Shown here: positions 7,823 to 63,600 of the stretch, piece by piece
Layout of the letters: each line of letters starts with the position of its first letter
Numbering within the stretch: the first letter of the stretch is position 1
Origin: Symsagittifera roscoffensis
Lineage: Eukaryota
NCBI RefSeq assembly: GCF_963678635.1
Contig: NC_087064.1
Coordinates: 32,681,028-32,745,027, forward strand
Length of the DNA: 64,000 bases
Reading direction: 5' to 3'
Notes under the pieces: generated by a model
What the model saw: only the letters and a program-made list of their open reading frames with translations
Databases searched by the model: none
Told to the model about the DNA's origin: nothing
Translations under genes and position numbers: made by a program

Positions 7823-8359
7823 TCAAAAAGAGGAGCGATAGGTTCTTGCGTTAGTCTTGTAGTCATGCTTGGTTTTTATATTTGTTGGAATGATTTTCCT
7901 TTTGCGGATGAAGTGATTCATTTCCGGTTTCTTATTTAGTTTTTCTTTTAGCGCAGTTCTCAGCTGAAATTTTTCTTGCTGTTGCTGTTTGTTAAGGTCT
8001 GGGTTGATGAAAAGCTTCCGATTTGCTCGTGTTCGCATTTTTCTGGTGTTTTTCAGGATTTTCAATTTGTGTTTTGTGGCTTTAAACGTGATTCGGATCA
8101 GTTTTTTGTTCTCTCTGCCACCGAAGGCTTTCATTGATTCATTTGGCTCCTCTTTGAAGTTTGTGTCTAAAGTCATGCAGATCTGGACGACATCGGATTT
8201 AGCCTGGTCACTAATTGAGATGCCCGAGATCACGATGTTCTTTTCACGTTCCCTCTTGCAATTTTTCTTCAAGATTGATACCTTTGAAAATATTTGAATA
8301 TAGCAGTTTGTTCGATTCTTCATTGCTGGGAATTCTTCGATACGCTGATTTGTTTTCAT
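7823..8359 (-). mobile_element. LINE ORF1-like (Transposase_22-type) fragment
   Basis: The 178-aa ORF includes LIRITFKATKHKLKILKNTRKM...RKLFINPDLNKQQQQEKFQLRTALKEKL, which resembles the conserved C-terminal domain of L1/CR1-family ORF1 proteins. It has the same orientation as the RT fragments downstream. Confidence 0.35.
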
Positions 8360-15500: not shown

Positions 15501-15849
15501 CATCAATTAGCCGATGTCGTCCCAAGTCATTGTTTTCCATTTTAGCTTCTTCTTTTGTTAATTCTTTGCTGAAGAACGCAGGAGGATTGTAATGCTGCTG
15601 ATGCCAAGATTGCTCTCTACTTCCATTTTTTTGGTACCTTCAGTATGATTATTCTGTTTTTGTCGTCTCGTTTTTTCCCAATTCTTATTAGGTCGCTGAT
15701 ATCCGTTTCTAGACAATATTGCTTCAAGACTTACAAGATGATTCATTTGAGGACTTCATACGGTTTCTTGTACCAATAATTTTAGAACTCTTCATCAACT
15801 TCGCTTGGTACTCCGAGTCAAAGGCTCAAAGATTTCACCAGACTGAAGA

Positions 15850-19407: not shown

Positions 19408-19688
19408 GTTATTTTGGACATGAACTCAATTGGAGAGAGCACAAATTGGGCCCCCGTTCCCCCAGTTATGTCGATGTACAAGGCTCTGGGAGTGCGAATC
19501 ACGCCACTTCCTGCTGTCGAACTAGAGGCTCTTTCACAATCGCTACAGTTTTCGAACAGGGCAGAAGTAACTCAGGTGTTTGGACTTCTGAAACCTGCTC
19601 AGATGTGTTCGTTCAAGTCGACTGGAAAGGAAGTGCAAACATTGTATCACGGAACAAGTCCTGCCAACTTGATCGGAGTTTTGTCGAG
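19408..19688 (+). CDS. PARP4: PARP4-like exon 6, N-terminal part of PARP catalytic domain (H-G-S)
   Basis: Acceptor TTTTGCAG|GTT. ...TGKEVQTLYHGTSPANLIGVLSR matches PARP1 LWHGSRTTNFAGILSQG and human PARP4 LLHGSPVQNIVGILCRG. Donor AG|GTAAAT is phase 2. Confidence 0.85.
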
Positions 19689-27690: not shown

Positions 27691-27841
27691 TTTTTAATAG
27701 GAAGTTTTGTTCTCCTGAGTTACAATGCAATGGAATGAGATCTTAGGCGTTCATCAAAGTGTAAACTCAAATTTTAACTTTCTTTGGTAAATTTTTGGCT
27801 CTTTCAACAGTCCAAGTTACTATCTATGAAATATGTTTTAG

Positions 27842-28293
27842 GGGACTCATACTTCCTAATGTTGCGACCAATGAGTTTGGGATACCTTTGACAGACTTCG
27901 GCAAGCTGGGTCGAGGCATCTACTTCTCAGAACAGATGAATACGAGTTTAAAGTACTGCTCCCCAGCTCAACATGGGCTCAGATACCTTCTCATGTGTGA
28001 AGTGGTTGTCGGAAAGCAGTTCGAGACCTCGGATCTGATGCCCGAAAGAACCACAGCTCCAGAAGGGTTCGATTCTGTTGTTGCGAACCCTGATTCGCAT
28101 AACTTCAATGGAGATTCTGAGGTAGTGGTGTATAATACGAACCAAGTCAGATTGAAGTATCTGATTGAGTTGAAGGTCGAAGGCGATAATCAGAAGAATG
28201 GTTGGGAGTTCAATTCTCAGCTCTTGTTACCTGGTTTTGGTGGTGATGAGGTCGATCTAGCCAGCAGGGGAAAAGAGAACGACTTGAGCTTCG
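27842..28293 (+). CDS. PARP4: PARP4-like exon 7, C-terminal part of PARP catalytic domain (Tyr and catalytic Glu)
   Basis: Acceptor TGTTTTAG. The phase-2 entry gives LSR|GLILPNVATNEFGIPLTDFGKLGRGIYFSEQMNTSLKYC...YLLMCEVVVGK...APEGFDSVVA...DSEVVVYNTNQVRLKYLIELK. This is near-collinear with human PARP4 GSGIYFSDSLSTSIKYS...LLLICDVALGK...PPGYDSVHG...DEFVVYKTNQVKMKYIIKF. Donor TCG|GTGAGA is phase 1. Confidence 0.9.
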
Positions 28294-28429
28294 GTGAGAT
28301 TTTATGGGAGATATTTTTGTTGAATTTTGAAGTTCTGGCCTTAATTGCCAAAAATGGTTGCCTGTGTTTGCCTTTTTTTCAATCCAGAACTAACACTGAT
28401 GACCATCAGTAGAGAATTTAGAAAAAGGG

Positions 28430-34549: not shown

Positions 34550-34960
34550 GTGAAAGAAACAGCCCGAAAGGAGTACAAAGAAGCAATTTCTCAAGGTCAC
34601 GGCGCCTATCTGATGGAAGAGGACAAAGAAATTCCAAATGTGTTCTCAGTTGCGGTCGGTAATCTGCCTCCTAAAGCGACAGTCGTGATTAAAATCACGT
34701 ATGTCACCGAACTTCAAGTGGAAGCATCTGATCTGAAGTTCTCGATTCCTGGAGCAGTTGCACCTTGGAGTGTTGAAAATGTCAAAACTGATACTCTGCA
34801 GTCAACTGTAAAGAGTGTGTTATTAAATAATGGCGGATTTGGCGATAGAAGTGATATGGAGAAAGTTTTGAAGCATAAGTTTACTCTGCAAGTGAATATG
34901 GAAATGCCTTTCAAAATAATGCACCTGAAATCAGAGACTCATCCGCACTTGAAAACAAAG
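34550..34960 (+). CDS. PARP4: PARP4-like exon 9, VIT domain C-terminus
   Basis: Acceptor ATTTAG|GTG. VKETARKEYKEAISQGHGAYLMEEDKEIPNVFSVAVGNLPPKATVVIKITYVTEL matches human EKEEAQQEYLEAVTQGHGAYLMSQDAPDVFTVSVGNLPPKAKVLIKITYITEL. Donor AAG|GTGAGC is phase 0. Confidence 0.9.
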
Positions 34961-35157
34961 GTGAGCTATTTCCCAAAATTCAGTAATTATGTGCAAGTTT
35001 CATTTTTCATAGCTTTTCAACAAATTAGGTTTACACTATTATGAATGGGGTGTTTCTTTGTTCTTAACGTGAATATTATAACTGGGTTATTTGTGACCTC
35101 ATTAGTATGATTTAAAGAATTATGATTTTTTTTCGAATGATTGTTTTTTTTGTCTAG

Positions 35158-36405
35158 AGAACAGAGACAATGGCTGTGTGTGAACTACCAAACGGGACTT
35201 CGGATGGATCCGACGCCTCATCTCTCGGGTCACAAGGGTTTGAACTCCTGATTGGACTCAACGAGATCCACAAACCCAGAATGTGGGTGGAAAAGTTGCC
35301 CTTGCAGCCAAACGAACAAGCTACGATGCTAACATTCTATCCCGAATTTCAAACAAAGTCTGGTAGATATTCCGCGAGCAATCAGCAAGTTTTGATTCTT
35401 CTTGATTTATCAAACTCAATGAAGCATGATGATGCGTATTACTCGGCCATACAAGTTGCATGTCTGACATTGTGGAAAATTCCTGAACATTTTCTGTTTA
35501 ATGTAATCGTTTTTGGTACTGATTTTGAAGAACTCTTCTACAAAAGTGTACCCAATAGCGCGAAAAACAGAACAAAGGCAATTGAGTATTTGACTGAAAA
35601 GTCTAACACGTTCGAGCCTATGGGTGGTACGGATGCTAATAGACCTATAAGCATCGCCTGGGAACTTTTTAACAGCAATATGAAAGACTTTGCTAGAAAG
35701 CAGAAATTGAAATCGTTCAAAACAACTTTCTTGTTGATAAGCGATGGTCATATTTCACAGCCTACACAAAGTTCAATTTCATCGCTTTTTGATCAAAATA
35801 AGAGTCTCAATTTTCGACTATTTGCAAACGGTGTCTCGTCTTCGTGTGATAAGCATACGTTAAGAGTTCTGTGTGATAAAGGCGCTGGATATTTCGAGTT
35901 TTTCGACACCGCAACGAAATCATCCTGGATGAAAAAGGTCAAAGGTCAAGTGGAAAAATTTTCCCAGCACGTGCTGACTAATGTGTCAATCAAGTGGGTG
36001 CTACATGAAGACAAAGATGATGCCCATTTATTCGATCTTTCGAACCCTGACCGTGTCATTCAAGCGCCAGCTAACTTAACGGCACTTTTTGACGGCCAAC
36101 GAGTTGTGGTGTATGGCATCGTGTCATTTTGTCAGCAAGCGATTTTGGAGGCGGAATTAAATGGACACAAAGTTTCGACAGTTGTTTCAACATCTGATCA
36201 CATGGCTACTGAGGGTCATCTAGTACACCAGTTGGCTGCCCGAGCAGTGATACGAGACTGGGAGACGAGTGCCGTGTTACACTCGGATAAAGCGACTCAC
36301 GAGTTTGCGAAAGCCGAGTTGAAAAATACGATCATTCGGTTGAGTTTGAAACATCAAGTTGTTACGCCTTTCACGAGCTTCATTGCTGTCGAGAAAAGAG
36401 ATAAG
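35158..36405 (+). CDS. PARP4: PARP4-like exon 10, vWA domain and post-vWA segment (in-frame stop at 36415-36417 if read through)
   Basis: Acceptor TGTCTAG|AGA is phase 0. The 416-codon frame includes ...LPLQPNE (human LPRMWVEKHPEKE), VILLDLSNSM (vWA MIDAS DxSxS), LLISDGH, and ...QLAARAVIRDWE...VVTPFTSFIAVEKRDK (human KLAARALIRDYE...ITQFTSFVAVEKRDE). Donor AAG|GTTCTG at 36406. Confidence 0.9.
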
Positions 36406-36453
36406 GTTCTGATTTAATGATTCGAAAAGTTCTGAATTATACTGTATGTTTGA

Positions 36454-43190: not shown

Positions 43191-46100
43191 TGCAAAAATG
43201 TTAGATGGATTAGAGAGTTTAATAGAAATGTCTCTACGACACAATAGATCTATGCCAATTTTCCAAACAATACGAGAAATACCAGGTATTGCGAGAAGGC
43301 CAAAAACAAGGCGCGATCTACGATTGAGAAGAAACCTACCAATCGACTTCATGCTAGTAAGACGAAAACCGGAAGAACAAATTTTCGTATTTAGAATCCT
43401 TTCCGCAGTAAATTTAAATTTATTTTTACTGACATAAAAACAATCTGAAGAAAAATTCTTCAGTACAAATATTGCTCAACCTACTATTTATAAAATAACG
43501 ATTGATAAAAACAACACAAGTCGTTCCTACAAAATCTGCAGTAAATCAAAACTTTTGAATAGAAATATTTATTGAACAAAACAACAAAAATTTGTTAGTA
43601 TAAAATTTGTTGTTAGTTTCATTAATATGCACACATCTTTTCTTCATCCCAGCTTCATCACCTAAAACATAATAGCAAATTTCAAAAAACTAATATCATC
43701 TAAACTTTAACTTTAAACCTTTTTAAACTTAAACCTTTAAATTAAACTTTAATAAGGCTTATTCTTGCTTTCTTTTAAATTATCTTATTTTAAACAACAG
43801 ATCATCAAGGCGTTCCTTGGATCTTCAAAGTCACATAAATTAAATTTCTTTTAATTCTGATCATCAAGGCCTCCCTTGGATCAAATCATACCAATTTTGT
43901 TCACCTAAACAAATTAGTTCAAGTGTCTAACGACCTCAAACGTCGATTCACTTTCCAACCCTTATAAACGACTCAGGACTAATCGAAATTTTTGAAAAAA
44001 CTAACCATTTTAATTAAGATAAACAGTGAAGAACTTCGGTTACTCATCCCTCACTTGAGCCCATCCTCTTAGATGACCCAGACTAAAACACTTAAAACTT
44101 AGTAAGTCATAAGATAGTATCTAACGGTCTACTTGCGTTCTAATCATACCTGAACCTTGTGGATTGATTTACTATTCTCCAACCTTTGATCACAAATCAC
44201 AACCCCTAAGTAAGATCATAAAAAGTCCCTCTTGGACGAGAACCTAATCACGAGAAAGTAAAAAATCATTCTCACGAATTGATATACTTTTCTCTCTCCA
44301 ACCCGTTAACTCCGACAATCTATGCCCCAAGTTAAGATAACCACACAAAAACTGTATGAACTAACCGTTTAAGGAAATATAAACTCTAACCCCCTAGTGC
44401 TTGCTTCCCTCATCCTAAAACTTATGTCAAGAGATAATCTAGGCAGTAAACAAACAATCATATTACATAATTGTTTAATCAGAAACGAACGGTACGATCT
44501 TGTAATCACACCCCACAAACAAACAATAGGATATATCAGATCAAAAAGACAAACACGTGAAAAGACAATAATAGCAAAACAAAAGCAAAGTATCAAAAAA
44601 CGATTTCAAAGAGGAAACGCAGCCTCAGAATCAGAAACAAACACGATACAGGAACTTCAAGATTTAAAAAGTTCAATAAACAAGAAAAAAGCACTAGAAA
44701 AGTCAAAAATGTTTTTTTGACTCCGAAGCAACATCACCATCATCAATTAAAGGAAAACGTAGAATTCAAAAATCATACATTAATAAACGAGTACGTCTTT
44801 ATAATTGGAAAGAACCAATCCGACATATTGAAAGTTACACATTAACAGTTTTGAGATGATCGAATAAAACGAAATTTTTGACAATAATTCAATTTTCCCA
44901 TTTTCTATAAACCAGAAAGTGATCCCGCTCGAGGACAAGTACAATTTTGTCACAACTTAATTGTAAATTTATTCGAAAAAGTTTAGAGCCCGTGTAAAAA
45001 TGAATTTCCCGAAATAAGAATAACAAGTCAAATCCTTGACCACTACCTCAAAGATTAATGTAACATAACAACACAGTACGGTGTATTCACAATAGAAACC
45101 TTTTCACCAAAACCAAACCACCCTATACATCAAATACAAATAGATGACATAGATGCAGAATTCTCAAAAGATTTTACAGAATACATAAAAAATATACAAC
45201 ACCATAATTCACAAAGAGCAAATGATGTTTTTTCACTTATTTACAGCTATGTATTTATACTAGAATCGAAAGAGATACAAGATGCATCACCACGTCAAAC
45301 ATCCAGACCCTCAACTGTAAGACACGAAATAAATATTTTTTCAAAATTTTTAGATACAATACGTGAAAATTTCAACGTTAATGAAATTTCACAAAACGTC
45401 AAACACGATCTACAAAAAATTTTAGCATGGTTCATTATTGACTATTTCGTTCACAACATTGATTTTATAACACAGTCAAGGAAAAGTTTTAAACCACAAA
45501 ATTTAGACGCAACTGTATTAGCAGATAAAACAGATTATGTTTGGGACACTGATAAGTCTCATCCATTATTGATCAGTATAACAACTGATATTTCAAGCGC
45601 AGCAACTGCAACTATATCCGTAAATAGAGAATATGTTAAAATAACTCCACTTACTATTGACGCAACCCCTTTAAACTAAAATACAAAATTCACTGATAGA
45701 ACAAAAAATAATAGCTTAAAGTCCACATTCATTAATACACAAGCCAATTTAATTGGAACAAGAATTCTTACACAACAAGATATTTAAACTCCATCACATT
45801 TCATAAATGAAGAAATTGTTGAGACCAGGCCAATAACAAGACAACAAAGCATATCTCCTATTCACCCAACAATTACAACACCACCAAATAAAAACGCAAC
45901 ATTTCCACAAACAACCATACAATCAACAATAAAACCTTCTGTTGCCCCGAAATATTCACAAATGGATTATCAGACAATTAGACCAATAACACGAAATCAC
46001 GATAATCAAACAAAAAAAAATGACAGAAACAATTTTTCAGACCATAATAATAATTTCTTAGCCAATAATAATATAGCAAAACCCCCCCTATAAAAGCTAT

Positions 46101-46312
46101 CAAAGTCAATCACAGGCACAAAACTACAACCAACAATCACAACAACAAGTTTTCCACTCAGTTTTTTCAACGATCAACAACGAGATACAGCGGATTATAG
46201 TGAAAATATTTCAATTTTTCAACAAAATAAAAAATTGACAAATAGACATTTTACAAGAAATCAACCACATTATTCAGAAGATGAAGATTATTTTAATCAA
46301 AACCACCAATGA

Positions 46313-47182
46313 TTGTATATAAATCATCAAAACAACAACTGGAATATTGATCAACCAGATCCTATCTATCAACCAGATCTATTTGAACCATACGCACGAA
46401 ACGAACAAACACAACAATCAAAACAAACTTTTCCTCCAAGACAAAATTCAGCATCATATAACAATAACAATTTCCCATCACAAAAACCGACAAATACACA
46501 AAATTATCAACCAGCACGAATGCAAAATGAAATTCCGTTGCCATATTTTTTACAGCAACATGAAATCACAAAAACAACTAAAAATTTTTTCTCAAATGCC
46601 AAATGGCGCAGAATCATTCAAATGACTTTGAATTCATACCTTATGGGTGGATCATCCATATCTTCGAATAAACCATTAATGGTATTCACAGGAACAGATC
46701 CTGAATACTCAATAGAAGATTATTTAATTGCAATCACAGCAAATTTAAATCTCAATGTAGGACCTGAACCAATAAATAGGCCACTTCATCGAAATTGGAT
46801 ACATAGACGCACAGCTCTAATCCAAACCACACTTGATGGCGCATCAGAAAAATGGTTTCAATTTTTACCAATTGAAAATAAATCAGACTGGAAAAGATTC
46901 ACACAAGAATTTTCAAAAATGTTTGACTCTGAAAGCAATAAACAACATCAAAGAGTTTTTCGTAATGAAATCCGTAGACTCCCTAACGAAACAATCAAAC
47001 AACTTGCAGTAAGAATCAAAACATTAGTAAGAAAAGCATACTCACTTGATACACATGATTACAAAAATATGAAAATGACAGAAGTCTTAATGATAACTTT
47101 AACACCACAACTACGAAAAATAGCGATAAAAAAGAGAGCATCGCATCCATCTTCAATTCGAGAACCTGATATAGATTTTTGA
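46313..47182 (+). CDS. Retrotransposon Gag (capsid-like) ORF
   Basis: The 289-aa ORF includes ...DGASEKWFQFLPIENKSDWKRFTQEFSKMFDSESNKQHQRVFRNEIRRLPNETIKQLAVRIKTLVRKAY, typical of retrotransposon Gag. A zinc knuckle follows. Confidence 0.7.
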   Translation: MYINHQNNNWNIDQPDPIYQPDLFEPYARNEQTQQSKQTFPPRQNSASYNNNNFPSQKPTNTQNYQPARMQNEIPLPYFLQQHEITKTTKNFFSNAKWRRIIQMTLNSYLMGGSSISSNKPLMVFTGTDPEYSIEDYLIAITANLNLNVGPEPINRPLHRNWIHRRTALIQTTLDGASEKWFQFLPIENKSDWKRFTQEFSKMFDSESNKQHQRVFRNEIRRLPNETIKQLAVRIKTLVRKAYSLDTHDYKNMKMTEVLMITLTPQLRKIAIKKRASHPSSIREPDIDF

Positions 47183-50100
47183 AAACTAGTAGACAAACTA
47201 GAACAAGCTGAAATCACAAGGAAACTGGAAGAAACAGAAAACATAACATCCAAATAGGTACTTCACAAATGAATAATATACAAGATTCCGACACGGAACT
47301 AGCTGAAAAAATTACTCAGATATTGAATATCTATGAGAAAAATCCAAATTTTAACGGTAAACCAGCATTCAAATAATAGTGCAAGTATTGCCGTAAATAC
47401 GGACATAGAATTGCTGAATGTAGACAAAAACAGCAAGTTAATCAGAATAAACCACAAAAATATAGAGAACCAAATAAATCTTGCTATCAATACATGAAAA
47501 AAGATTAAAACCTACCAAACAAAATATTCAGTATTAATAGTTCAGAAAAACCACTCCCAGACAATAATAATAATAGACAACAATCATCTTACCGTAACAA
47601 CTATTGCGGAAGATCTCCAGATCGAAGAAATTCTCAAAGTTTCCCACAAACTAGATACAGCAGATCAAATAGTCAAAATAACCAATATCGAAATAATTAC
47701 TCAAGATAAACTCAAACAGAAGTAATTATTTAAACTACAACAGAAATAATTCCAATTCAAACTCTCGTAACAGATAATATTCCAACGATCAATCTAGAAA
47801 TTCTTCATATAATCGAAACAGGAATTACTCAAATAACAGAAACAAACAATAATCAGACAATAGACCACGAAATTACTCAAACAACAGATCAAACTATAAC
47901 AACAATTACAACAGTTCGCTAGATAATTCTAGAATCTGAAACTATAATTATCCAAATAGACGAAGAAACTATTCTCAGTCACCGCAAAGAAATCATACAA
48001 ACTATCAATATTCACAACAAAATTGTAGAAGCAGTACACCTAAACACCAAAGACAAATAAATCAGATACAATCAACTGAACAAACTCAATCAGACCCGGT
48101 ATTGATAACACAAAGTTCAGAATTACAATTAAATCACATAAATTGCGAATCCACAGATGACGAAAGCGAAACAGAAAACACATTTTCAATGAACATGCTT
48201 CACATTGAAGAATACGTAACACCAATCGAATCGAATTAATATCACAATCACGAAAATTTTAATAATCTTGATGAACAAAACACCACACAAAATATGATAG
48301 ATTATACTAAACAAGAACTCGAAGGAAGTTCAAGTACGAATAACATATACCAAATTATAACAAATAAAGTAGAACCAGCTAAAAAAAAATTTGGACACTT
48401 TCATTACAAAAATTTTATTAGAAAGTCCAAAAAACAAAAATTTTCAGTCACCAGACCTTGAAATTGATTTTTTAAAAGACTCAGGAGCAGAATCAAACAT
48501 TATAAATATTCCCACTTGGAATGATTATAAACATCCCCACGCTCTCCCATAATTAATAACTCGACGTTATTGCTGAGACATGTGTCAAATTTGAGTTCGA
48601 CCGAAATAGTGCAATTGGTCAATTCAGGATGAATGAAATCGCGTGAAGCCTCCTATACGTGAGATCAAAAGCCATAATAAAATGATTATCATAATTAGCG
48701 AGACTGATTCCATGACTAGTTTTCAAAACGAAATCAAGAGGCTCAAGCGTATTGTAATAAATTCTTTTATTGTCTGATTTTGAGTTGGGAGTTCCGACAA
48801 GGTGTAGGCCGTTTCTGTATACAATGATCTCATTCAACCCAAACTTCTGGTAATGAACAGTGTTTGTCCTATTAGTACCCAAATATGCTTCTTTTATGCT
48901 CATTGCTACTATCATTATTCGAACAGGTTCTTTTGCGAAAACATCCTCCTCTTGTCGCAAGCTTTGTACTCCTGCAGTTGCGAGAAAAGTTTTTGGTTTT
49001 TTGGTACTACTTCGATGTAATTGTAAATTGCCGGGTTCTTCAACAGAGTTTTTTCTATTGACGAGAGAACATAATCAGTCACATTCATTTTTCAGACAGA
49101 GATTAGCTTCGATTATTTGAACCTTGGAGTGTTTAGCTGCATCTTCAGACATGACAACAAAATCGTTAGGAGAACGTCTAAGAGACAATCTAATTGTCAC
49201 ACCGCTAAGTAGGTGCTTCTCACACTACAAGAAGTCGCAAGCAATTTTACCAAATAGCTTCAGCTCGTTCGAGGCCGCAACGAGACCTTTACGCTCCGTA
49301 ACATCCTCAGCTCTCCTCCCATTACCGTCAATAGCTGATAGGTTTTCTTCTTAATAATAACCTTGACAAGCCAACCATGTTTCTTGGCATCATTACAGTA
49401 TGAAAACTCGGTCTCAATAAAGCTTTTATGGGCGAAATTAGCGTTAGTAATTGATATTTTCTCACCTTTCAGAGACAGTGTTTACTCAGAAAATAATGAA
49501 GATAAATGATTGTTAACAAAATACGGCATATCTCTGTTTGGCGCCTCTGTAGCATGTGTTCGAAGCACGTTTCCATTGCTTCGAACAATTCGTGCAACTT
49601 TTTCCAAACGAGTACGTTGAAGATCGATGAAAATATTTCTGTCGCCGAGTACTTCAAACTCGAGCATAGGAACATCAGGAGAGTAGGAAGGTCCAATTTT
49701 TTGGGTGAATGCATTTTCAAAAGTGACAACTAAAGGCGGTTTTTCAAATAAGTTCAACGAGCTGTGAGTTGCTTCACTCGGGATTAAATAAGAAATCATT
49801 TTTAACCCTTGTAAAGAAATCGGAGCGACTTCTCTGGGCAGTTCGTTTTCTGGGAATGACGCGTCTCGTTTTTCATTTCACCACCGTTGTTTTTTTTTCG
49901 AATGACTTTTTCGACATCTACATCCTCCTCCTGCTTGCTTTTTTATTGTTTTTCTAAAGGTGCTCTTGAGTGCCTGCTTCGAGCTTTTTCTTTTTATGAA
50001 AACTATCAGTTCTGGAGCTGCCTGAAGAAGTAGTTCTTTCCGATCTTTTTTGCTGCTGGTATCACAAACTTTCGAGCCAATGGAAGTGCCACTCTTCCTA

Positions 50101-51346
50101 TTCCCAGGGCTAATGCGCCGAAGCCACTGCCTCGTTGTCTATAATGCCCCGAGAAATGTTGTAGGTTTGCTTGGTTGTGGTAATATGAATCCATATTGAT
50201 CAATTGCTTAACTTTTGAATTTCAAAGTCAGAACAACTTTTCCACCTCCAGCGAAAGGAACAAGTCCTCCAGTTTCTGTGCGCAAGTTCACAGAAATATT
50301 GTTTTTGATCAAAAATTTTTCAAAATCCAATTTACTAAACATTTACGATGATTCGGTCGGTTCAATTGTACATGCGTAACCGTTCTTCACTCGACGATTT
50401 GTACCAATGACTCGTAAAAGGGGTGCTTTTGTGTCTCCTACTATTTGATAATGAATTATGTCCGGGTAAATAAACATAAGCTGAGTACCAGCACATACAT
50501 CAACGGGATTGTCAGCAACAAGATCTTGGGTAGTGAATGTGTTATGTTTAGAGCTTCTTGTTTGTAACCTATAGGATAACCAGTTCCATCTATGACGCCC
50601 TTGAATTCAAGTAGACTAAGAATTTGCAGGCTTGAAAAAGTTATACCATCCCAATAATGCAGCCATAATGAAAGATGTTTGGTTATTGGATCTATTGCAT
50701 AATCCAGTTTCTCTAATTCTGTCTTTCGACGAATCTCATCTAGTATTTGTTCAATGCTCGTATACTCTCATTTTGTTAGTTTCGCTTTTTCTCCAAGGTA
50801 AGGCCTGGAGATTTTGTCTTTCTCAACTTTCATGCTTGCAATAACCAGATCTTTTTTGTAGTACCCAATGTTGTTGTCAGTTACGTTGTTTATCTGAGTG
50901 CTGAAGGTAATTTCTGTAACTGCTACTTTACCTTCACCTTGCAAATTTATTTCTTCACTCAGGAGATTTTTGAAGTTGGCCAGAGATCTTTAAAAACCTT
51001 CTTTGATGCAGATGAAACTAGGGTAATTGTGAAGGAAGGGGAACGTTATGGGTGTAAAGGCTGGAAATGCCCTCAGTCATGATTGCTTACGATTTCTCCT
51101 TCTCCAGAACGCGGATTAGTTCAGACTAGTGAAATTTCCACTCAATCGGTTCTCTGTTAGAATCAATCAAATTGTATGTTGGGGGATTTCGTGTTGGTAT
51201 GTCAAATACTTCAACTTTTTCATCGGTGAACGATTGTTTGTAACCCTTGCGAAAAGGTATGTCTACTTTGGCGAGTCTAACATAATAACCAACATAAAGC
51301 TTTGGACGTCGAACTTATTTCAACGACTGTTCTGCTCTTAAAGAAA

Positions 51347-51913
51347 TCAAGCGAGGACTATCTTTTTTAGTTTATTTGTTTGGTGCAAGATTTGTGACAC
51401 GATTTGTTCTCGAATTAATTGCCTTGACAAAATCTTGCAATTTGTCAATGTATGAGAATCCTCCAAGTACTTATAAATAAGATTTTTCAAGGAACGGATA
51501 TTTCTCTTAGCGAATGCAGACTTTTTATCGCTCTCTGTGCTATATGTTTTTATGCCCTTCTTTTTAGATAATGCTTCGAAGGATCCTTTAAACTCTGTGC
51601 CGTTGTCCACCCATACTTTTTTTAGTTTGTTTTGTCGTTATCATTAGTTTGAACGCTTCTGCTGTTGTAGTAGCATATTTTGATTTCAAGGGTTGCACTC
51701 ATAGGCCAGATCTATTGACCAGATTTCGTCGATATCGTAAACTATGACCTTGAGTCGCGGCATTTTTCGGATGAATGTTCGATATTTCGTGTAAGCAGCT
51801 TCAGTATGAAGGAAATGTTCAACTTTCTTTCGCGACAAATTGGTTGCTTTTATCAAGTTGCTCACACTACCAAATAACGCGCGACCTTTTTCACTGTATT
51901 TAGTTTTCAACAA
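51347..51913 (-). CDS. Retroviral-type (rve, DDE) integrase, split over two frames
   Basis: 51686..51913(-) gives ...RLKVIVYDIDEIWSIDLAYECNP (first catalytic D region). 51347..51610(-) begins MDNGTEFKGSFEALSKKKGIKTYSTESDKKSAFAKRNIRSLKNLIYKYLED (core D-N-G-x-E-F). Confidence 0.75.
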
Positions 51914-53046
51914 TTTTTCTTCATTTTTTTCGTCTTTTCTGACGTTGGAGAATCTGAATCGTTGTAGGGCGTTCCGTACGAGTCAGAGCCTTCTGACTCG
52001 TTTTCACGCTTTTGATTTCGGGTTTTTCTTTTGTCGCTAAGGCTTTTTCGTTTTTGTTTTTTACTTCTCTTAAGGTTTGCACTACTTCTTTCCTGCTAAG
52101 CGGGATGTTGGGCGTGTTCTTGAGGGTCCGGGTTCTCGTTTTTCTTGAGCGTTGAAAAACGCTGTCTGAACCGCGTGTTTGGCATTTCGATTAAATACCA
52201 GCTTTTCATTCAAGTTGAGTGCAGTTAAAATGATAATGAACGCTGGATTGTGTAATTTTTTGTTGGTTGTTGTATGTCGTATAAAAATACTGTAGCTTCA
52301 AGTCCTGTTGGTTTTTTATCCGCATATATCACTTCATTGTTACGGTTTATGGTTACTCTTTCCGAATTTTTTATGATTTCAAGTATAGTTTTTGCTCTAA
52401 TAAATTTTTTGTCCTCTAAAACCTGTAACTGTCCCAAAATATTTTCGGTCTGCCTATCTTTTTTATTTTCTAATATTTCATCTTTATCACGTTCAACCGT
52501 TACTTCTCCATCGTCCGTTAACAGTTCAAGCTGTTCTTGTTGGAGCTCAGCAGCATTTTCTGCTAATGTTTCTTGGTTGCAGTAGTCTTTGTAGTTTGAG
52601 GAGGTATTTGGAGTCTAAGCGGGTTAAGGTAGGATATTTGAGCGTTTTAATGTTTATTACTATTATCGTGAAGAACACGTGCAGCATGTGGCTGCTCTTT
52701 AACATATAAGTGTTTCGGAATTAGAATGAATTCTTCAGCAGTCATAATTAAATTGAGAGGTACTTGTAACAAAAATAATGTTTTTGTAGCGCTAAATGGA
52801 AACCTTTTTCACTCAAAATAATCGCACGTTTTTTGACAACACTGGTTTTGGGAGTGATTAAATATTTGTACGCTATCTCGAATCGTTCAATATTTGCGTT
52901 TTAACGGGTACGTTTCCATTGACTACATTGAGCAAACATTAACAGTTAAGTGTTATGACCTCGCGATTGAAGTTTTTCCAATTAATTGTCTTAGTTGTTC
53001 AGGTGTCAGTTGTACCATATGCCGCAGAATAGATACGTTTTTCTTT

Positions 53047-53661
53047 TTAATTTGTGATTGGAGTAGTTTCTGCTTTAGATAAGGGTAAATAAAAAATTGT
53101 TGGCCCAGGCCGTGTGATATTTGAACAATATCTCAAACAATCTGATGTGCGGGGGTCCAAGTCGATTAGAAGATGTCCAAAAGAGTCTATGGTAGCTAAT
53201 TCGTAACAGCTTCTCAAAAGTTTTGATACATTCAATTGTCTTCCTAAAAGATCTAGTTGCTGAACGACACGAGGCGATTCGAACAGAATGATGTGTGAAG
53301 TGTTCAAATCAATCGTACGCGACCATCGACTTTGTTGAAACAAGTTATGCTTAACATATATTACATTTAACCCTCTATGTCTACCCGCTGTCGCTAATCT
53401 AACAAATTCCTTGACATTATAGATGTCTTCACATGAATCATCGAAAACTAGAAGAACAGTTTCTAAGTTTCTTAAAGATCCGAATCCGTTGAATTTCATG
53501 AACTTCTCTTTTACTTCGCGAGAAGACACTTTTTCTGAGATTGCAGGTTGCATCTCTTTGTAAAGATATAGAACGGTTCCAAGTTTAGAGTAAAAAGTAT
53601 TTCCCATCAAAAGTTTGAAATCAGTTTGTTCATATCCTCGGATTTGGTAATACGTAACCAA
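53047..53661 (-). CDS. P-loop ATPase-like ORF (Walker-B-like VLLVFDD; possible FtsK/A32-type packaging ATPase)
   Basis: The 204-aa ORF has ...ETVLLVFDDSCEDIYNVKEFVRLATAGRHRGLNVIYVKHNLFQQ (hhhhDD then a polar/Arg-rich sensor region). Only the degenerate GNTFYSKLGT lies upstream as Walker A. The assignment is tentative. Confidence 0.3.
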   Translation of the reverse strand: MVTYYQIRGYEQTDFKLLMGNTFYSKLGTVLYLYKEMQPAISEKVSSREVKEKFMKFNGFGSLRNLETVLLVFDDSCEDIYNVKEFVRLATAGRHRGLNVIYVKHNLFQQSRWSRTIDLNTSHIILFESPRVVQQLDLLGRQLNVSKLLRSCYELATIDSFGHLLIDLDPRTSDCLRYCSNITRPGPTIFYLPLSKAETTPITN

Positions 53662-56229
53662 CCAAGCCGGATAAAATCGAAAACCAAACTGAAGTTTCTT
53701 CGCAATTTCGTGACAGAAAGTTTGAGAATGCAGAAAGTTAGTAAAATTAGAATTACTACCATTTGCGCAACAAAAACTACTTCAGACCTTGGCAAAGTTA
53801 CATTGTTACAAAATTTTTATGATTTTTTTTTCACCGTTTGTCTCGTTATAAAGAAACTATGTTACTAATGTCGCGTCAGGTTCATCTACTGCTGCTGCTG
53901 TTTCTGTTACTTGAGATCTGGTTTATTCTACAGACTGTGTTAGACTTTTTCTCACTGTAAATGAAGCTTGCAAAAAAAAACAATAAACTGAATTAGTATT
54001 ATGAACAGTACAAATTTTCATAACGTGTGAAGTCTCTATCATTTTTGTCATGCATTTCTAGAACATAGTTTGCTGGGACATTTGCAGTTTTTTCATAGTA
54101 CATTGTTTTCTTCATAGTATCCTCTTTCACTATCCTCGTAATCTCATCTGGCAATTCACTGCTGTTTAGATCCATCTGAACTCCTGGCTGACGCTTAGGT
54201 ACTAAGACTAGCTCGGGAAGATATACTCCTCGCTTGCTGGCTAACATTTCTGATAAATTTGAATCTCTGGAAGTATACAAATTGATCAATAACAGGAAAA
54301 AATCTCTTTAATGTAGACAACTCTTCTTCGGAAATTATTATTTGCTTTTTCCTCTGAACAGTTTAGCCGCTGCAATCAATACGCTCTATTCTTGTTAACG
54401 AAATTTCATTATCATCCTCTGGAGTCATCCACGCACAAAGCATTGAATTTGGTGGTAGGTATTTCTGAACTTTCGCTGATCTCTCGCTGTTGTTCATTTC
54501 TCAACCAATCATGAAAAACCTTGCTTTTCTTCAGGGCACAATGATTCCTGGAGTTTTAATGAGGTATATGTCTATTGAAAGTTGGATAATTATTGGAAAA
54601 TAAGTTTTCAACCCTAGGACAGCCCAAATCATCTAGGTTTTCAACCTTTCGGTCCAAGTACTTGGCCAAAAATTCTGTCTTTTCTTTTCCTTTAGCGTAA
54701 AAAACGGCACCTGGATTTCTCAACACAAAGCTCTGAAGTAGTTGATTCAAGTTTATGTAAAGGTTATCACCGTTTTCCAAATGGAGATCGTGTAAACATT
54801 TTGTTAACCAGTTGTAAGCTTTTGTGTTCGAGCTTCGGTAATATATTGAAGTTCACTGGAGGTAAAAAAATGAGTCGGTCGCTGTAGTCTGAAGTTGTTA
54901 TTGCTAATTCTTTAACCTCAAAGGCGTTTTTCTTGTAACGAAAGCCTTCCGCGTCAAGCACAACTGATCTCTCGCTTAGCATTTTAGTAAATGATAAACT
55001 TCTGGTTTTTTCAACTTAACGAAAAGGCAGAACGCTATTCCACTCCAATGTCCTAATAAGCTGTTGTTACAGTTCCAGGGCAACATGTAACCGTACGTGG
55101 GAGCCTGTTGGTAAAACTTGTGTATAAATCCGACTGCATCACGCAAAACAGCTTGCAATCGTTAAATTTTGGAGTTTTTCAAGTATTTGTCCAAGGAAGA
55201 GTTATCAATACCAATCAAGCCACCATAAGGTCTCAACTTAATTAAAGTGTCTGGGTTAAGATTATCAGAACAAACAAAAATTTGAGAACATGCAGCTAGA
55301 AATTAGTTTTGTCGGTTAGAATTATCAGGATAAGTTTGTTTCAAAGACGTATAAATTTCGTGACTTGTTTTCAAATCAATAGGAGTTACTCTGCTGTTTT
55401 GCAATTTCATTGTTTATTTTTTCCAACACCTCTCCAATTTGCTGAACTTCAAGCCAATGGAAATAAACGTCACCTTGCAGATACCATTTATACTCATTAA
55501 GATATGGTGGTATATAATTAAATAAATCACCGGAAGTTTTTTGTATTTTGATTGCTTGTTGAAACATAAACCGATTTTTTTCTCCAAGTCTTTATCAACC
55601 CATATTTAGTTAAAATCAAACGAATAGTCGAATACTTTTTCATAATCAACTATATTCAAATCGCTCACAGTAGCATGCTTTTGCTTTGTAGAAATGCACC
55701 AAGAGATTTGTTGAAGCTCACTCAAAAAAAATTGTTCTTTGAAAATTAACTCGTATTCTTTCTTGAAATTTCCCTTGCCCTTTCGAAAAACACGACGTAT
55801 CGTTCATTACCGAATTTGAAAAATGCTTTTTTTCTGTGGTTGAAAATACTCTTAATTGTAATTGTTCATTATCAATATCTTCAGTACACCAAGTTCCCTC
55901 TAGCTTCATTTTTCTTATTTCAAAATTTGACAAATTTATCATTTGGTATATTTTGCCCAGAAACGACCGCTGCCTTTGGAGAGTAATTTCAATTTACTGC
56001 CTTTTCACCATAAAATATAGGTCAAGTTGAGGATTTAGCCTACTGCTGCCAACAGTTAGGCTACGCTGCCAAAATCGCCGGCGAATTTTTATTATATACC
56101 ATAAAAGTCAATTCTCCGTTCACTAACAAATTTAACTAGGTCGAAAGTTCACTAACCCGAAACAAATATAACAATTAATATGATTCATATAATTAACCAA
56201 GACCAATAATTAGGACCCCAAAAATTGGA

Positions 56230-56445
56230 ATTAGAAAGAATTTTGTATCGTGTCCCTTGTTGCTAAGCTAAGCTTAGCAAGATCCTAAGTAGGGGGTCTT
56301 CTGCTTTTTGGATGGAAATTTTCTTTCGTTAACAAAATCCTAGGATGATGGTCCTCCAAAAAATTAAGGACCCCTTTGCTAGGATTTTGCTTTGCGTGAG
56401 GACCCCCCCCCCCCTTAGGATCCGGGACACAATACAATACTACTT
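56230..56445. repeat. Inverted-repeat/palindrome-rich block (possible element terminus)
   Basis: TTTGTATCGTGTCCC (56245) pairs with GGGACACAATACAA (56425). Palindrome TTGCTAAGCTAAGCTTAGCAA at ~56262. C10 tract at ~56402. Confidence 0.4.
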
Positions 56446-56704
56446 AAATTGTTGAAGCTAGATTTTGACGCCTTCATAGAGGGTAGCTGAGAATATTTGG
56501 TCTCGTCGATGTTGAAATTTTATTCAAATTCAAAGTACATTTTATCCGTAATCATCCTTGAACACAGGAATTGAAAAGAGTAAAAAAGCTAAATTCGCAC
56601 TTAATGTTGTCCACTTATGTAGATTTCTGATTTTCGAGCAAAATAAAGAATTTATTTATTGATCCAGTTTTCTCGAATTGGGTATTTTATCAAAAAATAT
56701 TACC

Positions 56705-56950
56705 ATTTGTTGTTCTAGAAATTCAAAGAGCCTTAAGGCCATCTGCTTTTTTCCGAAATTCGAAATTTGAGATTTTTTCAAAAAGTAAGTCAATATTCTT
56801 TCTGTTCATTCTCTTTTCCAACTGTCTGTTGGCTATCTTTCTTCGAATTTTAAAAGTTGAATTTTTTCCGAAAAAAAACAAGTCCGTTTTTTTTTTCTGT
56901 TTTTTAAGTTCAGTGTCTCTTTTCCAACTGTCTGTTGGCTATCTTTCGTA
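56705..56950. repeat. Dispersed ~150-bp repeat family (further copies at 62215-62360, 62575-62745, 63195-63345)
   Basis: Shared ...AATTCAAAGAGCCTTAAGGCCATCT..TTTTT...GAAA..TGAGATTTTTT...CTCTTTTCCAACTGT.TGTTGGCTAT.TT. Confidence 0.6.
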
Positions 56951-57141
56951 ATTTTTCTTCTTTCTGAAATTTACCAAAGAGTTAGTGCAGCGAAAATGCT
57001 CAGCTAAATAATATCTTGCTCAGCCTTTAGAATCTTAAGTTAACGTAGAATCATCAGCATCTCCTGAATTCAAAAGTTAGCTTCGATTCTGATCAACAGA
57101 GCCGCCCTTTTAATTAGATGACAATCATTGTCTGATTTTAG

Positions 57142-57282
57142 GTGGAGACCCGACTGCTTATAACGAGGAAGTGGCTCCTGCAGTAGTGATGGACTGCGGC
57201 TCACTCTATGTCAAGGCAGGTCTCAGCATAGACGAAAGCCCTCTCCAGTTCAAGTCCTTAGTGGGAAGACCCCGTCACCAAG
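57142..57282 (+). CDS. Actin-like (actin/ARP family) coding exon 1 of a fragment
   Basis: Acceptor TGATTTTAG|GT. ..GDPTAYNEEVAPAVVMDCGSLYVKAGLSIDESPLQFKSLVGRPRHQ matches actin [41 protein letters not shown]. Donor CAAG|GTTAGT is phase 1. Confidence 0.5.
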
Positions 57283-58289
57283 GTTAGTGAAATTCATCAA
57301 TTTGATCGATGATTGTTAAATTAAAATAGCATTCAAGTTGGTAGCAAGTAAAAGTTGGGTATTTTGCTTAGGCGTTACCTGTTCCCTTTATATTACCTGG
57401 CCTCGCTTTGAAGCTAACCCTCTGTTCAGACAAATCAAATAAATCACCGCCATAAATAATTTGAATTGTTTATGGTAAGAAAGCGCTTTTTAAGCAAAAA
57501 TAATAACGCCCAAAATAATTCGCACAACCAAAAAATGACCCAAATCTTCCAACAATCGATTTTTTGCAAAAATTTCATTATTTGTATACAAAAAAAAACC
57601 AAAGAGAACGGTGAAAAAAATTGTAGAAAATATGGGTTCTTATGGTCTCTTCTGTTGATCGATTTATTTATCAGCCATATGAGTGTTTTGTTATTGTCTG
57701 CCTGTCGAGTTTGTGCTTCTTACAACCTCCGCTGTCGAATCTGTGCGACTTTCATGAATTTGGTCGACCTTGGTATATGTTTAAACAAGCCGAGCATAAT
57801 ATCATTAGGAACTCCAATTTTTTGCAACCCAAGTCGAATGAAAATGCTCATTTATTTTGTGCTTCATGAGCATTATATCTTTTTGTTGGCGTGTGTTTGA
57901 TGCTTATTGAGAGGCCATGGCATTGATGCTAGTACGTGAAATTCTCAATATCGAGGTCAGGAGTTCATAACATATCAGTGTGCTTAAAATTATTACCTTT
58001 TCTTTTGTTCTTTCATTTTTTAACTTCTTTTAGGACTGTTTTTTTTGCCGTTTTCTCGCTTGTTTGGCAGGAGCAGCTTCGCCTCTGTGTTATAACATAA
58101 AATGTATAAAAAACAAGGTCGACAAGATTTTTGAAATGTGTGCAGGGTCGACAGCGGACCTTGTTCGAATCACCAGATATTGTTTGACTAATACGGCTGA
58201 TACATAAGTCACTACCTCAAGCTGGGTGGCGTAGAAAATAAATTCTATTCTAATCTCAGTCTATCGCCGTTAAATCATAGCTCTTTTAG

Positions 58290-60615: not shown

Positions 60616-63600
60616 ATAGTTAACGTTTCCGAAGAAATGCGGCAAATTGTCTTCTTTTCAAATAATTAGCCTGATTTGAAAAAGTTTTCGAAAATGATTT
60701 TTTCTTTAGATTTTTCATTACATTTGCTTTTAATGAATTTTACGTTTTCCAGGTTTCTTCGCATTTGGCCTCGAGGTAACGCCGTTGGTTTTGCACCCTA
60801 CGGTCCGGGGTTTGAACTCCGGCCGGACTTTTTTTTTTTTTTAGTATTTATGTCCTTGATTTTCAAGACTTTCGTTCATTTGCTCAAATTTGTCGGCTTA
60901 GTTGGCACATTACAGATTTTTCTTGTGCTGTAAGCAAGTATCCTTGTGGTTGCAAATGTTGTAAATTTTTGTGTCTGGTGGGACTTTGAACTTCTTACAG
61001 ATTTTCTAAATCATTCTTTTTTCGGATCAACTTGTGTCTGCTCAAAGAATATCGGCTTTGTTTCCGCATCGTAAGTTTGGGTCCGTTGCTTTTTTAAAGT
61101 TTTGGTCCTGCTTGACATGTTTTCCTAGTTTGATAAAAACAGGTATTATGAAACTTATGGGATTGGGTTTTTCTATTACCCTTGCAATCAGGTACAAGAC
61201 TTTTTTCTCGTAAAAAACTTCGATGAAAGAATGGTCAAAATTAAAAATGGTACATTTAGGTTCAGTTTATTTTGAATTCATTTTTTTGCGGATCCGGTAC
61301 ACTTGGCCTGGAGGTAACGAGTACGCCTGAGACGGCAATGCTCCTGGGTGCGAAACTGGCATGGCCTGTTTTTTCTTTTCAAACGGGAAGTATTCCATTT
61401 CAAAACAGATTGTCGGCTTATTATGCTTATTAATTGTCTGCTTTTATTTTGTCAGCTTATTTGCAACATTGTATATGTTTTTTTGCTGCACTCAATTTAC
61501 CTTTTGGTTGCTGTCAGTGTTTTGATTTACTTCTGCTGTTTGTAATCTTTAACTTTGTATATTTTTCTTTCATGTTTTTTTTTCGCTTAAAAACTTTTTT
61601 CTGCCAAATGATTTCGGCTTAAATTTTATCGGCTTAGTGACATAATTTTTAGTACTTTTAAGGTAAACATAATGTTCATGTTCACTGGATCGCACAAATT
61701 GCTGAAATCTTTATAGAAAAAATAGCTCACGTTTTTCATGGCAACATTTTTTCGGCTTTTTTTCTAATTTTTTTTGGCTTGATAGGTTTCGGCTTATATT
61801 ATATCGGCTTAGTGGCCTCATATTGTTTCATTTGACGAGCCAACAAAGTTTTTTTGTGTGTGTATTTTGAGGGTGAAAAGGCATTGTTAATTTTATATTA
61901 GTCTTAATTCTTGTTTGGTTTTTTTTGAGGAAAAGTCTTAAAAGTCTCTAATAACTACAGATGTGCATTCATACATATTGATGCATTTATGAATGCACTT
62001 AGGTTTATATGTACTTTTTGAGTTCAATTGAAATTCATCTGCAGAGAGTGACGTAAATAGCACTCTCCAAATACAAATGTGGAAATGGCGCGACAAAAGG
62101 GAACGATTTTTAGTTTCGAAAGTGGATATTATTTTTTAGGTTTCCAGTGTAAAAAAATTTTTACCTATTGATCCACTTTTCTCATGTGGGGTTCATGTTA
62201 TAAAAAAAGCGCCAATTATAAATTGCTCTAGGAATTCAAAGAGCCTTAAAGGCATCTATTTTTTCTTTGAAATCTGAAAGTTGAGATTTTTTTAACAAAG
62301 TCAGTGTTTTTCTAAGTTTAGTTGCTTTCATTACTCTTTTCCAATATTCGATTGGCTATGTTTTCAAAACTAGCTTGATTAATTTTGATTGATATAGTTT
62401 TTTTCGACATATTCAAATTTTTTAAAAATTGTTTTCTGACTAAACGACTTTTTGGTTTTGTATCGCGCAAGTGGTGCGAATCGCAGCTTCGCCTTTGTGT
62501 TCTTTTTTGCGATCTTATTCTGGCTATGTTTGGATTTTGCAGCGAAATAGAAAAAAGTAACCTTTGAATCCAGTTTTCTTAAACGTTTTTAGTTTTCGTG
62601 AAATTCAAAGGCCATATATTTTTTTCTGTAAAAACTAATTGGTAACATTTTTTTAGAAAAACAATTTTTTTTATTTTTTCAGTTTTCTTGCTTTCATTGA
62701 CACCGCTTCTTTCAGCTCATTTAGCTATCTGTTGCTTTTGTTTGATGCATTCAACCTTTGTGTAATCAAAGTATTTGAATGGTTTAAAAATTTGCTCTTC
62801 GGTTTGAGTTTTGAAAAATTTGCAGAATCGGAACATTTTCACGGTAGACAATTAGTTCTACAGTGCTCCACTTTGCGCTATTAAGAGTTATGAACATAGT
62901 GAGTTTTCTTATATAAATCTTGCTGATTTTTTTGTTTTTTTTAGGATAAAGTCTTGAAATTTGTTCACGCTCAGTTTTGATTTTTCGCGGTTTGACTTGT
63001 GATTTCTTTTAATGTTCAGTGCATTTCCATTGTTGAAAGGAAGGCAAACTCCCCTATCGAAGAACAAAAGCGAAAAGGTCACGAAAGACGTGATCGACTT
63101 CTGATTTCGAAAAATGGAAAGTAATTATTTGGTTTCTCAGCGCAATAAAAGTTTTGCGTATTGATACAGTTTTGCTCAAATTGGGTTAGTTTCAACAAAA
63201 AAGTGTCCATCTTAAATTGTTTTAAGGCCATCTTTTTTTTCTTTGAAATGCAAAAGTTGAAGGCTCTTGAAAAAACAAGTCAGTTTTTTTTTGAGTTTCC
63301 TTGCTTTCAATACTCTTTTCCAACTGTTAGTTGGCTATGTTATTTTTAATTTTACGCGCTATTGTGTTCTGTTAATGCATAGGAAGCAAAATTACCCGCT
63401 CTCAAAATGTTATCAGATCGAGTTGAAGGGAGCAGGGTCTTCAACTGGTCTCTATTATAGTGACCAGTCACTTTTCATCTCTAAAAGCTCTACTTTTTTA
63501 CTGGTCAATATTTTTATTTATAGTCTAGAATACATCAAAACTCCTGAGGTCCCCCTTTGAACTATTTTGAGATATCCTTTTTTTGGCTGACGGACCCAAA

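Follow-up and report, generated by a model that had tools for sequence, protein, structure and literature searches.

Very probably the decayed left arm of a Polinton/Maverick: integrase and ATPase gene remnants beside a retrotransposon fragment in Symsagittifera roscoffensis

What kind of element combines an integrase with an ATPase-like gene, has neither a polymerase nor a reverse transcriptase (RT), and directly adjoins a piece of retrotransposon? The question is raised by a stretch of 64,000 nucleotides from Symsagittifera roscoffensis (assembly GCF_963678635.1, contig NC_087064.1, positions 32,681,028 to 32,745,027 of the forward strand), which is called the window here and whose own positions are used throughout. 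An initial annotation, made from the letters alone, had noticed such a block of genes on the minus strand and had read it as an element of the Polinton/Maverick type or else as a chimeric or novel one. Polintons/Mavericks are DNA transposons, reportedly described by Kapitonov and Jurka in 2006 and by Pritham in 2007. Our analysis upholds the first of the two readings. With a probability of about 95%, positions 48538-56444 (minus strand) are a dead copy, truncated on the right, of an 18.3-kb Polinton/Maverick whose ATPase, rve integrase, protease, double-jelly-roll (DJR) capsid protein, motifs of a DNA polymerase of family B with protein priming (pPolB), terminal inverted repeats (TIRs) and target-site duplication (TSD) can be read in relatives that are about 91% identical to it. 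Integrase and ATPase occur here with no polymerase and no RT because polymerase, protease and right repeat sit in the right arm, which is lost.

Contigs encoding homologues of the window genes were collected as loci (numbered L001 onwards), and their DNA was compared with that of the window. Read on the minus strand from 56444 to 48538, the window is colinear with L006 (7164 to 15295) and L012 (3153 to 11258) at 89–91% DNA identity; a second subfamily (L002) is about 72% identical to the block. The order of genes, as determined by tblastn and by alignment to L012, is the same in the window copy and the intact relatives for 12 of 12 genes. One copy on contig ctg23254l, 18,268 bp long, is made up of L012 and L014 as its two halves, and the window copy corresponds to the left 7.9 kb, or 43%, of this 18.3-kb element.

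The left end is sharply defined. Homology between the window, L012 and L006 begins at exactly one common base (AGTAGTATTGTAT...), and the flanks of the three copies are unrelated. In the window this terminus lies at 56444, where the minus strand begins 5'-AGTAGTATTGTAT. The end of the minus-strand block had initially been placed at 56010. Of the two terminal repeats that were to be looked for, the one near 56000-56450 exists (56227-56444); there is none at 48546, the right 10 kb being missing. A right terminal repeat was not found in the window, and neither DNA comparison nor gene search revealed right-arm Polinton sequence anywhere within its 64 kb. In composition, the window is of an AT-rich eukaryotic genome type. 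From the terminal repeat inwards, the features of the window copy are as follows.

56227..56444, minus strand: left terminal inverted repeat; matches L013 13722-13954 (a right end) in inverted orientation
55439..55909, minus strand: remnant of a 157-aa open reading frame (ORF), found by tblastn and alignment to L012; 3 frameshifts, 1 stop; intact form without a Pfam match
54976..55410, minus strand: remnant of a 142-aa ORF; 2 stops; intact forms without a Pfam match
54412..54982, minus strand: remnant of a 189-aa ORF with a VVLDxEGF... motif; 1 frameshift, 1 stop
53993..54247, minus strand: remnant of an 84-aa ORF; 1 stop
53630..53910, minus strand: remnant of a 94-aa ORF, perhaps for a membrane protein, since a hydrophobic stretch is visible by eye; 2 frameshifts, 2 stops
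52999..53633, minus strand: remnant of an A32/FtsK-HerA-type packaging ATPase; Walker B VLLVFDD kept, Walker A deleted (67 bp)
52748..53018, minus strand: remnant of a 90-aa ORF, found by tblastn and alignment to L012
51921..52748, minus strand: remnant of a 286-aa protein in which acidic and basic stretches occur; 4 frameshifts, 2 stops
51073..51913, minus strand: remnant of an rve (retrovirus-type DDE) integrase; 4 frameshifting indels including a 76-bp deletion, 3 stops
50200..51080, minus strand: remnant of a 297-aa protein, a putative penton, found by tblastn and alignment to L012
49789..50194, minus strand: remnant of a 135-aa basic protein, found by tblastn and alignment to L012
48538..49799, minus strand: double-jelly-roll major capsid protein gene; 5 frameshifts, 4 stops, 3' end cut

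Gene by gene, the window copy is 89–94% identical to L012 at the DNA level, and each of the 12 genes is disabled, with 30 frameshifting indels and 20 in-frame stops in total. The minus-strand ORF at 53661-53047, which holds VLLVFDD and is surrounded by short, interrupted ORFs, had been picked out as ATPase-like; it is indeed real and has 608 homologues in ENA or Logan assemblies (best E=1e-119, none of them named), several of which carry a precomputed Pox_A32 match. The label "P-loop ATPase" does not hold for the window copy itself, as the 67-bp deletion takes out precisely the Walker A motif (P-loop). The rve integrase was likewise recognized correctly: it survives as the remnant at 51913-51073, identified through its intact relatives, and its 76-bp deletion falls between the first and the second catalytic Asp. 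What had been described as several frameshifted ORFs are ten further remnants, all of them broken like the ATPase and the integrase. The capsid gene breaks off at codon 420 of 438, 18 codons before its stop. Judged by its sequence, the window copy keeps the left repeat and 12 broken left-arm genes, can neither replicate nor move, and is a fossil which, because one terminal repeat is gone, cannot be mobilised in trans either.

Two of the smaller genes deserve a remark. The 189-aa protein has conserved VVLDxEGF, HGxHW and NHCALKK motifs and is intact in L006 (8660-9229). By eye it had been considered as a DEDD exonuclease, a candidate that was rejected: its 69 homologues are all close ones, Pfam gave no match and the AlphaFold model (pLDDT 40) was unusable. 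The intact form of the 286-aa protein has a sub-threshold Coilin_N as its sole Pfam match.

Since the window copy is too damaged, the identity of its genes was taken from the intact relatives. The ATPase of L006 matches Pox_A32 with 26.9 bits against a cut-off of 22.8 (E=4e-6), as expected for a FtsK/A32-type ATPase, and the intact ATPases of about 233–240 aa possess both a Walker A (GPSGSGKT) and a Walker B motif, whereas the window ORF lacks the former. For the integrase, the rve scores within the window's subfamily are 24.7–27.7 bits and thus below the cut-off of 32.6, whereas the integrase of L008, a copy diverged by 50%, exceeds it with 37.5 bits; in addition, the integrase matches an IS481-type DDE transposase with E=9.5e-12. 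The 145-aa protein encoded after the capsid gene matches Peptidase_C5 (23.6 bits, cut-off 21.3), which identifies an adenovirus-type protease. A profile built from three of these protease sequences found adenain (1avp, E=5e-4) and the S273R protein of African swine fever virus (E=0.002) in the PDB, and the His, Asp, Gln and Cys positions are conserved.

The 438-aa major capsid protein has no Pfam match, and the named ones among its 364 homologues are all called 'uncharacterized protein F54H12.2-like' and come from the acoel Convolutriloba macropyga; for 'F54H12.2' nothing was found in the literature. A double-jelly-roll fold was found for this protein in the intact relatives. Its best match in BFVD is R9XLG5 of Cotesia sesamiae bracovirus (23% identity, E=3.6e-23), followed by capsid proteins of adomavirus, adintovirus, MELD-virus, virophage and giant-virus origin.

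The part of the element that the window copy has lost was first read from the contexts of distant capsid homologues and then in L012, which belongs to the window's own subfamily. It contains two minus-strand ORFs, an ORF of about 200 aa, a C2H2 zinc-finger protein and a protein of 861 aa. The large protein of L012 is 51% identical to this 861-aa protein, and about 50% identity is kept across three subfamilies. Its gene (L012:17399-19984, L009:13289-15871, L008:16270-18864) follows the capsid gene, in the window's subfamily, at a distance of 6 kb on its right. In the ~860-aa protein, the exonuclease motifs Exo I (YFDLES), Exo II (AHNxxNYDLH) and Exo III (DYHDLYLxxD) follow each other in order, together with the polymerase motifs Pol A (IDANNLYGG), Pol B (KLMSNSTYGK) and Pol C (YSDTDS) and, after these, KPKLY. 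Motifs of this set are listed for family-B, protein-primed polymerases in PMC10748475, and they support the designation of the protein as a predicted pPolB. Between Exo I and Exo II lies a CWIC...DHCHxxGxFLGxAHxxCNVN segment, for which Endonuclease_7 (HNH) scores 17–18 bits at a cut-off of 23.6.

Full copies carry the same terminal 27-mer, inverted, at both ends, the right ends being visible in L013 and L014. The TIRs measure about 239 bp, with 88% identity between them, and the termini read 5'-AGTAGT...ACTACT-3', i.e. 5'-(AGT)2...(ACT)2-3'. Long TIRs with ends of the AG...CT type are therefore present in the full copies, the window having the left repeat only. In the single copy that was covered over its full length (L012 plus L014 on ctg23254l), both flanks read ATCAGT, a TSD of 6 bp. 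This combination of (AGT)2//(ACT)2 and a 6-bp TSD is one of two Maverick end motifs (PMC8097293). An early search for TIRs on L006 and L002 had found no terminal repeats, because these loci end before the right end.

Some features of other copies concern the right arm or the integrity of the loci. An inverted repeat of 114–119 nt with 94–96% complementarity (L012:11856-11974 / 15439-15557; L006:15899-16012 / 19466-19579; also in L001 and L013) was considered as the TIR of the element and rejected, for it sits inside the right arm. It encloses a 3.5-kb right-arm segment with the two minus-strand ORFs and a 214-aa ORF, perhaps a nested insertion or a piece able to invert; L009 lacks the inverted repeat. 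In the second subfamily, L003 shows an internal inversion at 13387-14040 (L002 14708-15361 equals L003 14040-13387 reversed, at 100%), owing either to rearrangement of this copy or to an artefact of the assembly.

The family is young and very abundant in this genome. Among intact copies the mutual identity is 98%, from which it follows that the window copy was inserted earlier and has since decayed, whereas the family remained active. Clusters at 90% identity have 184–461 members for the protease, the integrase, the 297-aa protein, the zinc-finger protein and the polymerase, which implies hundreds of family copies, and a single protease sequence is present on 94 contigs. Positions 52047-54607 of the window (2.5 kb) are identical to contig ctg12278l; this contig belongs to assembly ERZ25878734, in which the intact copies L012 and L013 are also found.

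Several observations weigh against the assignment to Polintons/Mavericks. Pfam gave no significant match for the single minus-strand ORFs of the block, and with the three full minus frames of 48401-57400 it found no RT, RNase H, rve, ATPase or polymerase domain, results that we attribute to the degradation of the copy. Every functional label of the window genes is consequently one transferred from relatives of about 91% identity, and, the right end being missing, the window copy offers no TSD that could be checked. With respect to the family as a whole, the ~860-aa protein matches neither DNA_pol_B_2 in Pfam nor anything in NCBIfam or the PDB, whether searched as a single sequence or as a profile, and an hhalign comparison with a hand-typed phi29 polymerase sequence gave only E=0.16, motifs A and B being aligned. 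Finally, the 297-aa protein is a candidate minor capsid protein (penton) by its position between the integrase and capsid genes; neither Pfam nor the PDB gave a sequence match for it, and its profile produced noise only against the PDB.

On its right side, the window copy is bordered by two features.

48537..48538: junction between Polinton and retrotransposon; homology to L006, L012 and L013 ends at 48538
46313..48537, plus strand: fragment of a long terminal repeat (LTR) retrotransposon, outside the Polinton, with Gag, CCHC knuckle and DSGA motif

The Gag ORF of the latter (46313-47182, plus strand) matches Retrotrans_gag with 24.9 bits (cut-off 24.1, E=2.5e-5), and a CCHC knuckle follows at 47380-47421, for which the Pfam zf-CCHC model gives 14 bits only. 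Further downstream, an ORF reading ...LKDSGAESNIINIPTWNDYKHP (also given as ...DFLKDSGAESNIINIPTWNDYKHP) includes DSGA at 48478-48489; on the strength of this motif and of its position in the gene order it is regarded as a putative protease, and its 58-aa piece has no match in Pfam. This ORF runs into the junction, and Polinton homology starts 16 codons past DSGA. That the LTR element breaks off within a protease, as initially annotated, thus agrees with our result as far as the stop is concerned; the distance had been overestimated at about 20 codons, and the term protease is owed to motif and position. Neither the window nor the loci contain another copy of the Gag-PR element, and no homology to any Polinton copy was detected; because a second copy was not found, its LTRs and its family cannot be defined. 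It is an unrelated retrotransposon remnant. Over 44000-48000 of the plus strand, the fragment shows a marked strand asymmetry, with an AT skew of +0.24 to +0.32 and a GC skew of -0.27, and long low-complexity frames rich in N, Q and T are seen.

The junction leaves the Polinton without its last 10.3 kb and the retrotransposon without everything past the start of the protease. As no right-arm Polinton sequence follows beyond the retrotransposon fragment, this is not a simple nested insertion, and the truncation of both elements argues for a deletion or rearrangement. The simplest reading would be a deletion or an illegitimate recombination that took parts of both elements. Alternatively, the junction at 48537/48538 could be a mis-join of the assembly, given that both elements are repeats and are cut at a single point in a repeat-rich region. 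Nothing positive indicates a mis-join, however, and the ENA contig that is perfectly identical over 52047-54607 should, by its coordinates, span the junction, although it is perhaps not an independent assembly; a mis-join is regarded as improbable.

Would the window copy be better described as an endogenised exogenous virus of the adintovirus or MELD type than as a transposon? The family has a full virion module, the capsid fold resembles that of adintoviruses and adomaviruses, and three separate metagenome assemblies, of which at least one is from a Tara sample, contain near-identical intact scaffolds of 11–17 kb. These scaffolds may, on the other hand, simply be animal DNA, and hundreds of copies in one and the same assembly that are 98% alike and have TIRs and a 6-bp TSD are what marks an element multiplied in the germ line by its integrase. 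The difference is moreover for the most part a matter of names, as it has been argued that Polintons are bona fide viruses, the 'polintoviruses' (PMC4028283). As a better description of the window copy, an endogenised virus is thus very unlikely.

A separate matter is whether the lineage still exists as an infectious agent. The metagenome scaffolds L009 (Tara, 17.2 kb), L010 and L011 come from different samples and represent intact elements with the same gene order, and the polymerases of L009 and L010 are 99.9% identical. On L009 no terminal repeats were found, and its left end seems incomplete. The three scaffolds could be free virus genomes or the DNA of a widespread marine animal. Together with the 98% identity among genomic copies, they prompt the tentative suggestion, which we consider rather doubtful, that the family's lineage is a polintovirus still infectious today and passing between marine invertebrates.

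The lack of a polymerase could also be taken at face value, the block then being a new or chimeric class of element with integrase and ATPase, either a polymerase-less derivative of Polintons or a fusion with a retrotransposon. No polymerase is present within the window, and the first, too short loci also seemed to be without one; indeed, a polymerase-less unit of ~8.6 kb had been considered on the basis of these loci, which stopped about 5 kb past the capsid gene, and was given up when longer loci showed the right arm. In the longer loci of the same subfamily the polymerase does appear, 6 kb beyond the capsid gene on its right, while the window copy ends inside that gene, has no right repeat and is full of lesions, and the junction between Polinton and retrotransposon has no second copy in the window or the loci. 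The missing polymerase is thus explained by truncation, and a chimeric or novel element, as initially envisaged, is hardly credible. The family is a new member of the Polintons/Mavericks and not a new class.

That the block is merely an inverted LTR-retrotransposon fragment, to which the rve-type integrase would belong as part of the adjoining Gag-PR element, can practically be dismissed: the integrase lies between the ATPase and capsid genes within 7.9 kb that are colinear with Polinton copies, Pfam found neither RT nor RNase H in the three minus frames, the 12 Polinton gene remnants fill nearly all of the block and leave no free stretch long enough for an RT, the block terminates in a Polinton terminal repeat, and the Gag-PR fragment has no homologous counterpart in any Polinton copy. 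The absence of RT reported at the outset is thereby borne out, and of the two findings that had been named in advance as fatal to a Polinton, RT or RNase H homology in the block and a lack of ATPase homology, neither was made.

Having assigned the window copy to the Polintons/Mavericks, we compared the family with known systems. Polintons measure 15–20 kb and have the same gene set as this family (PMC4028283). With its 18.3 kb, pPolB motifs, rve integrase, FtsK/A32-like ATPase, adenain-like protease and DJR capsid protein, its long TIRs, 6-bp TSD and (AGT)2//(ACT)2 ends, the family conforms to them, as it does in the mutational degradation of most copies. It differs in that its polymerase is too divergent for the Pfam model DNA_pol_B_2 and includes an HNH-like insert, and in that its left arm has several small ORFs without recognisable Pfam relatives; the window copy, in addition, is non-functional and comprises the left 43% only. 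An HNH domain in pPolB2 is a synapomorphy of oomycete and nematode Polintons (PMC10748475). The polymerase described here resembles these in its CxxC...DHCH...AHxxCNxN segment with sub-cut-off HNH matches, whereas the host is not a nematode but apparently an acoel-like animal, and no fusogen gene was recognised in the family.

Adintoviruses, MELD viruses and adomaviruses are animal dsDNA viruses with Polinton-type modules. They share with this family the DJR capsid fold, the packaging ATPase, the protease, the integrase and, at the level of motifs, pPolB; unlike them, the element described here is integrated, bounded by TIRs and present in many copies in a genome. Bracovirus genomes hold Maverick insertions, and the Cotesia bracovirus Maverick, for which the capsid alone was compared, has the capsid protein nearest in sequence among the viral database entries, while its host lineage is a different one. 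The family was also set against Polinton-like viruses (PLVs), virophages (mavirus) and Tlr1. Most PLVs are without pPolB and rve integrase, and Tlr1 has an SF1 helicase instead of pPolB (PMC5499653, PMC4028283); elements of this kind would be expected to carry a helicase-primase or SF1 helicase in place of the pPolB and rve pair. As the present family has pPolB motifs along with an rve integrase, and the 18.3-kb element showed no helicase, it is not of the PLV or Tlr1 type.

From the gene content of the family and from what is established for Polintons, a mechanism can be proposed for the intact element. It would be replicated by its own protein-primed polymerase, and the rve integrase would insert it via the terminal inverted repeats, giving rise to the 6-bp target duplication. 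The formation of a capsid is probable; it would consist of the DJR major protein and the putative penton, matured by the adenain-like protease, and the A32-type ATPase would package the element DNA into it.

For the annotation of the genome, these results mean that neither stretch is a gene and that both call for masking, 48538-56444 as a degraded piece of a Polinton/Maverick and 46313-48537 as the remnant of a retrotransposon. A young and abundant Polinton lineage extends known biology and is no surprise; the family could, in addition, serve studies of Polinton activity, of capsid formation and of polymerase diversity outside nematodes and vertebrates.

The remainder of the window also contains host genes of animal type and other repeats. 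Exon-like ORFs on the plus strand at 27795-28412 and 34550-36417 resemble, by eye, the catalytic domain of a PARP with VIT and von Willebrand A domains after it, so that together they would be a host gene similar to PARP4 (vault PARP). On the minus strand, 6191-6799 and 7823-8359 look, again by eye, like the C-terminal part of the RT of a non-LTR retrotransposon (long interspersed element, LINE) and a basic ORF1-like protein, both unrelated to the Polinton. A short dispersed repeat lies at 56640-56960, just outside the left end of the Polinton, and again at 62095-62364 and 63056-63350; it also matches L002:4001-4300, a locus of another assembly, and is probably similar to short interspersed elements (SINEs) or miniature inverted-repeat transposable elements (MITEs).

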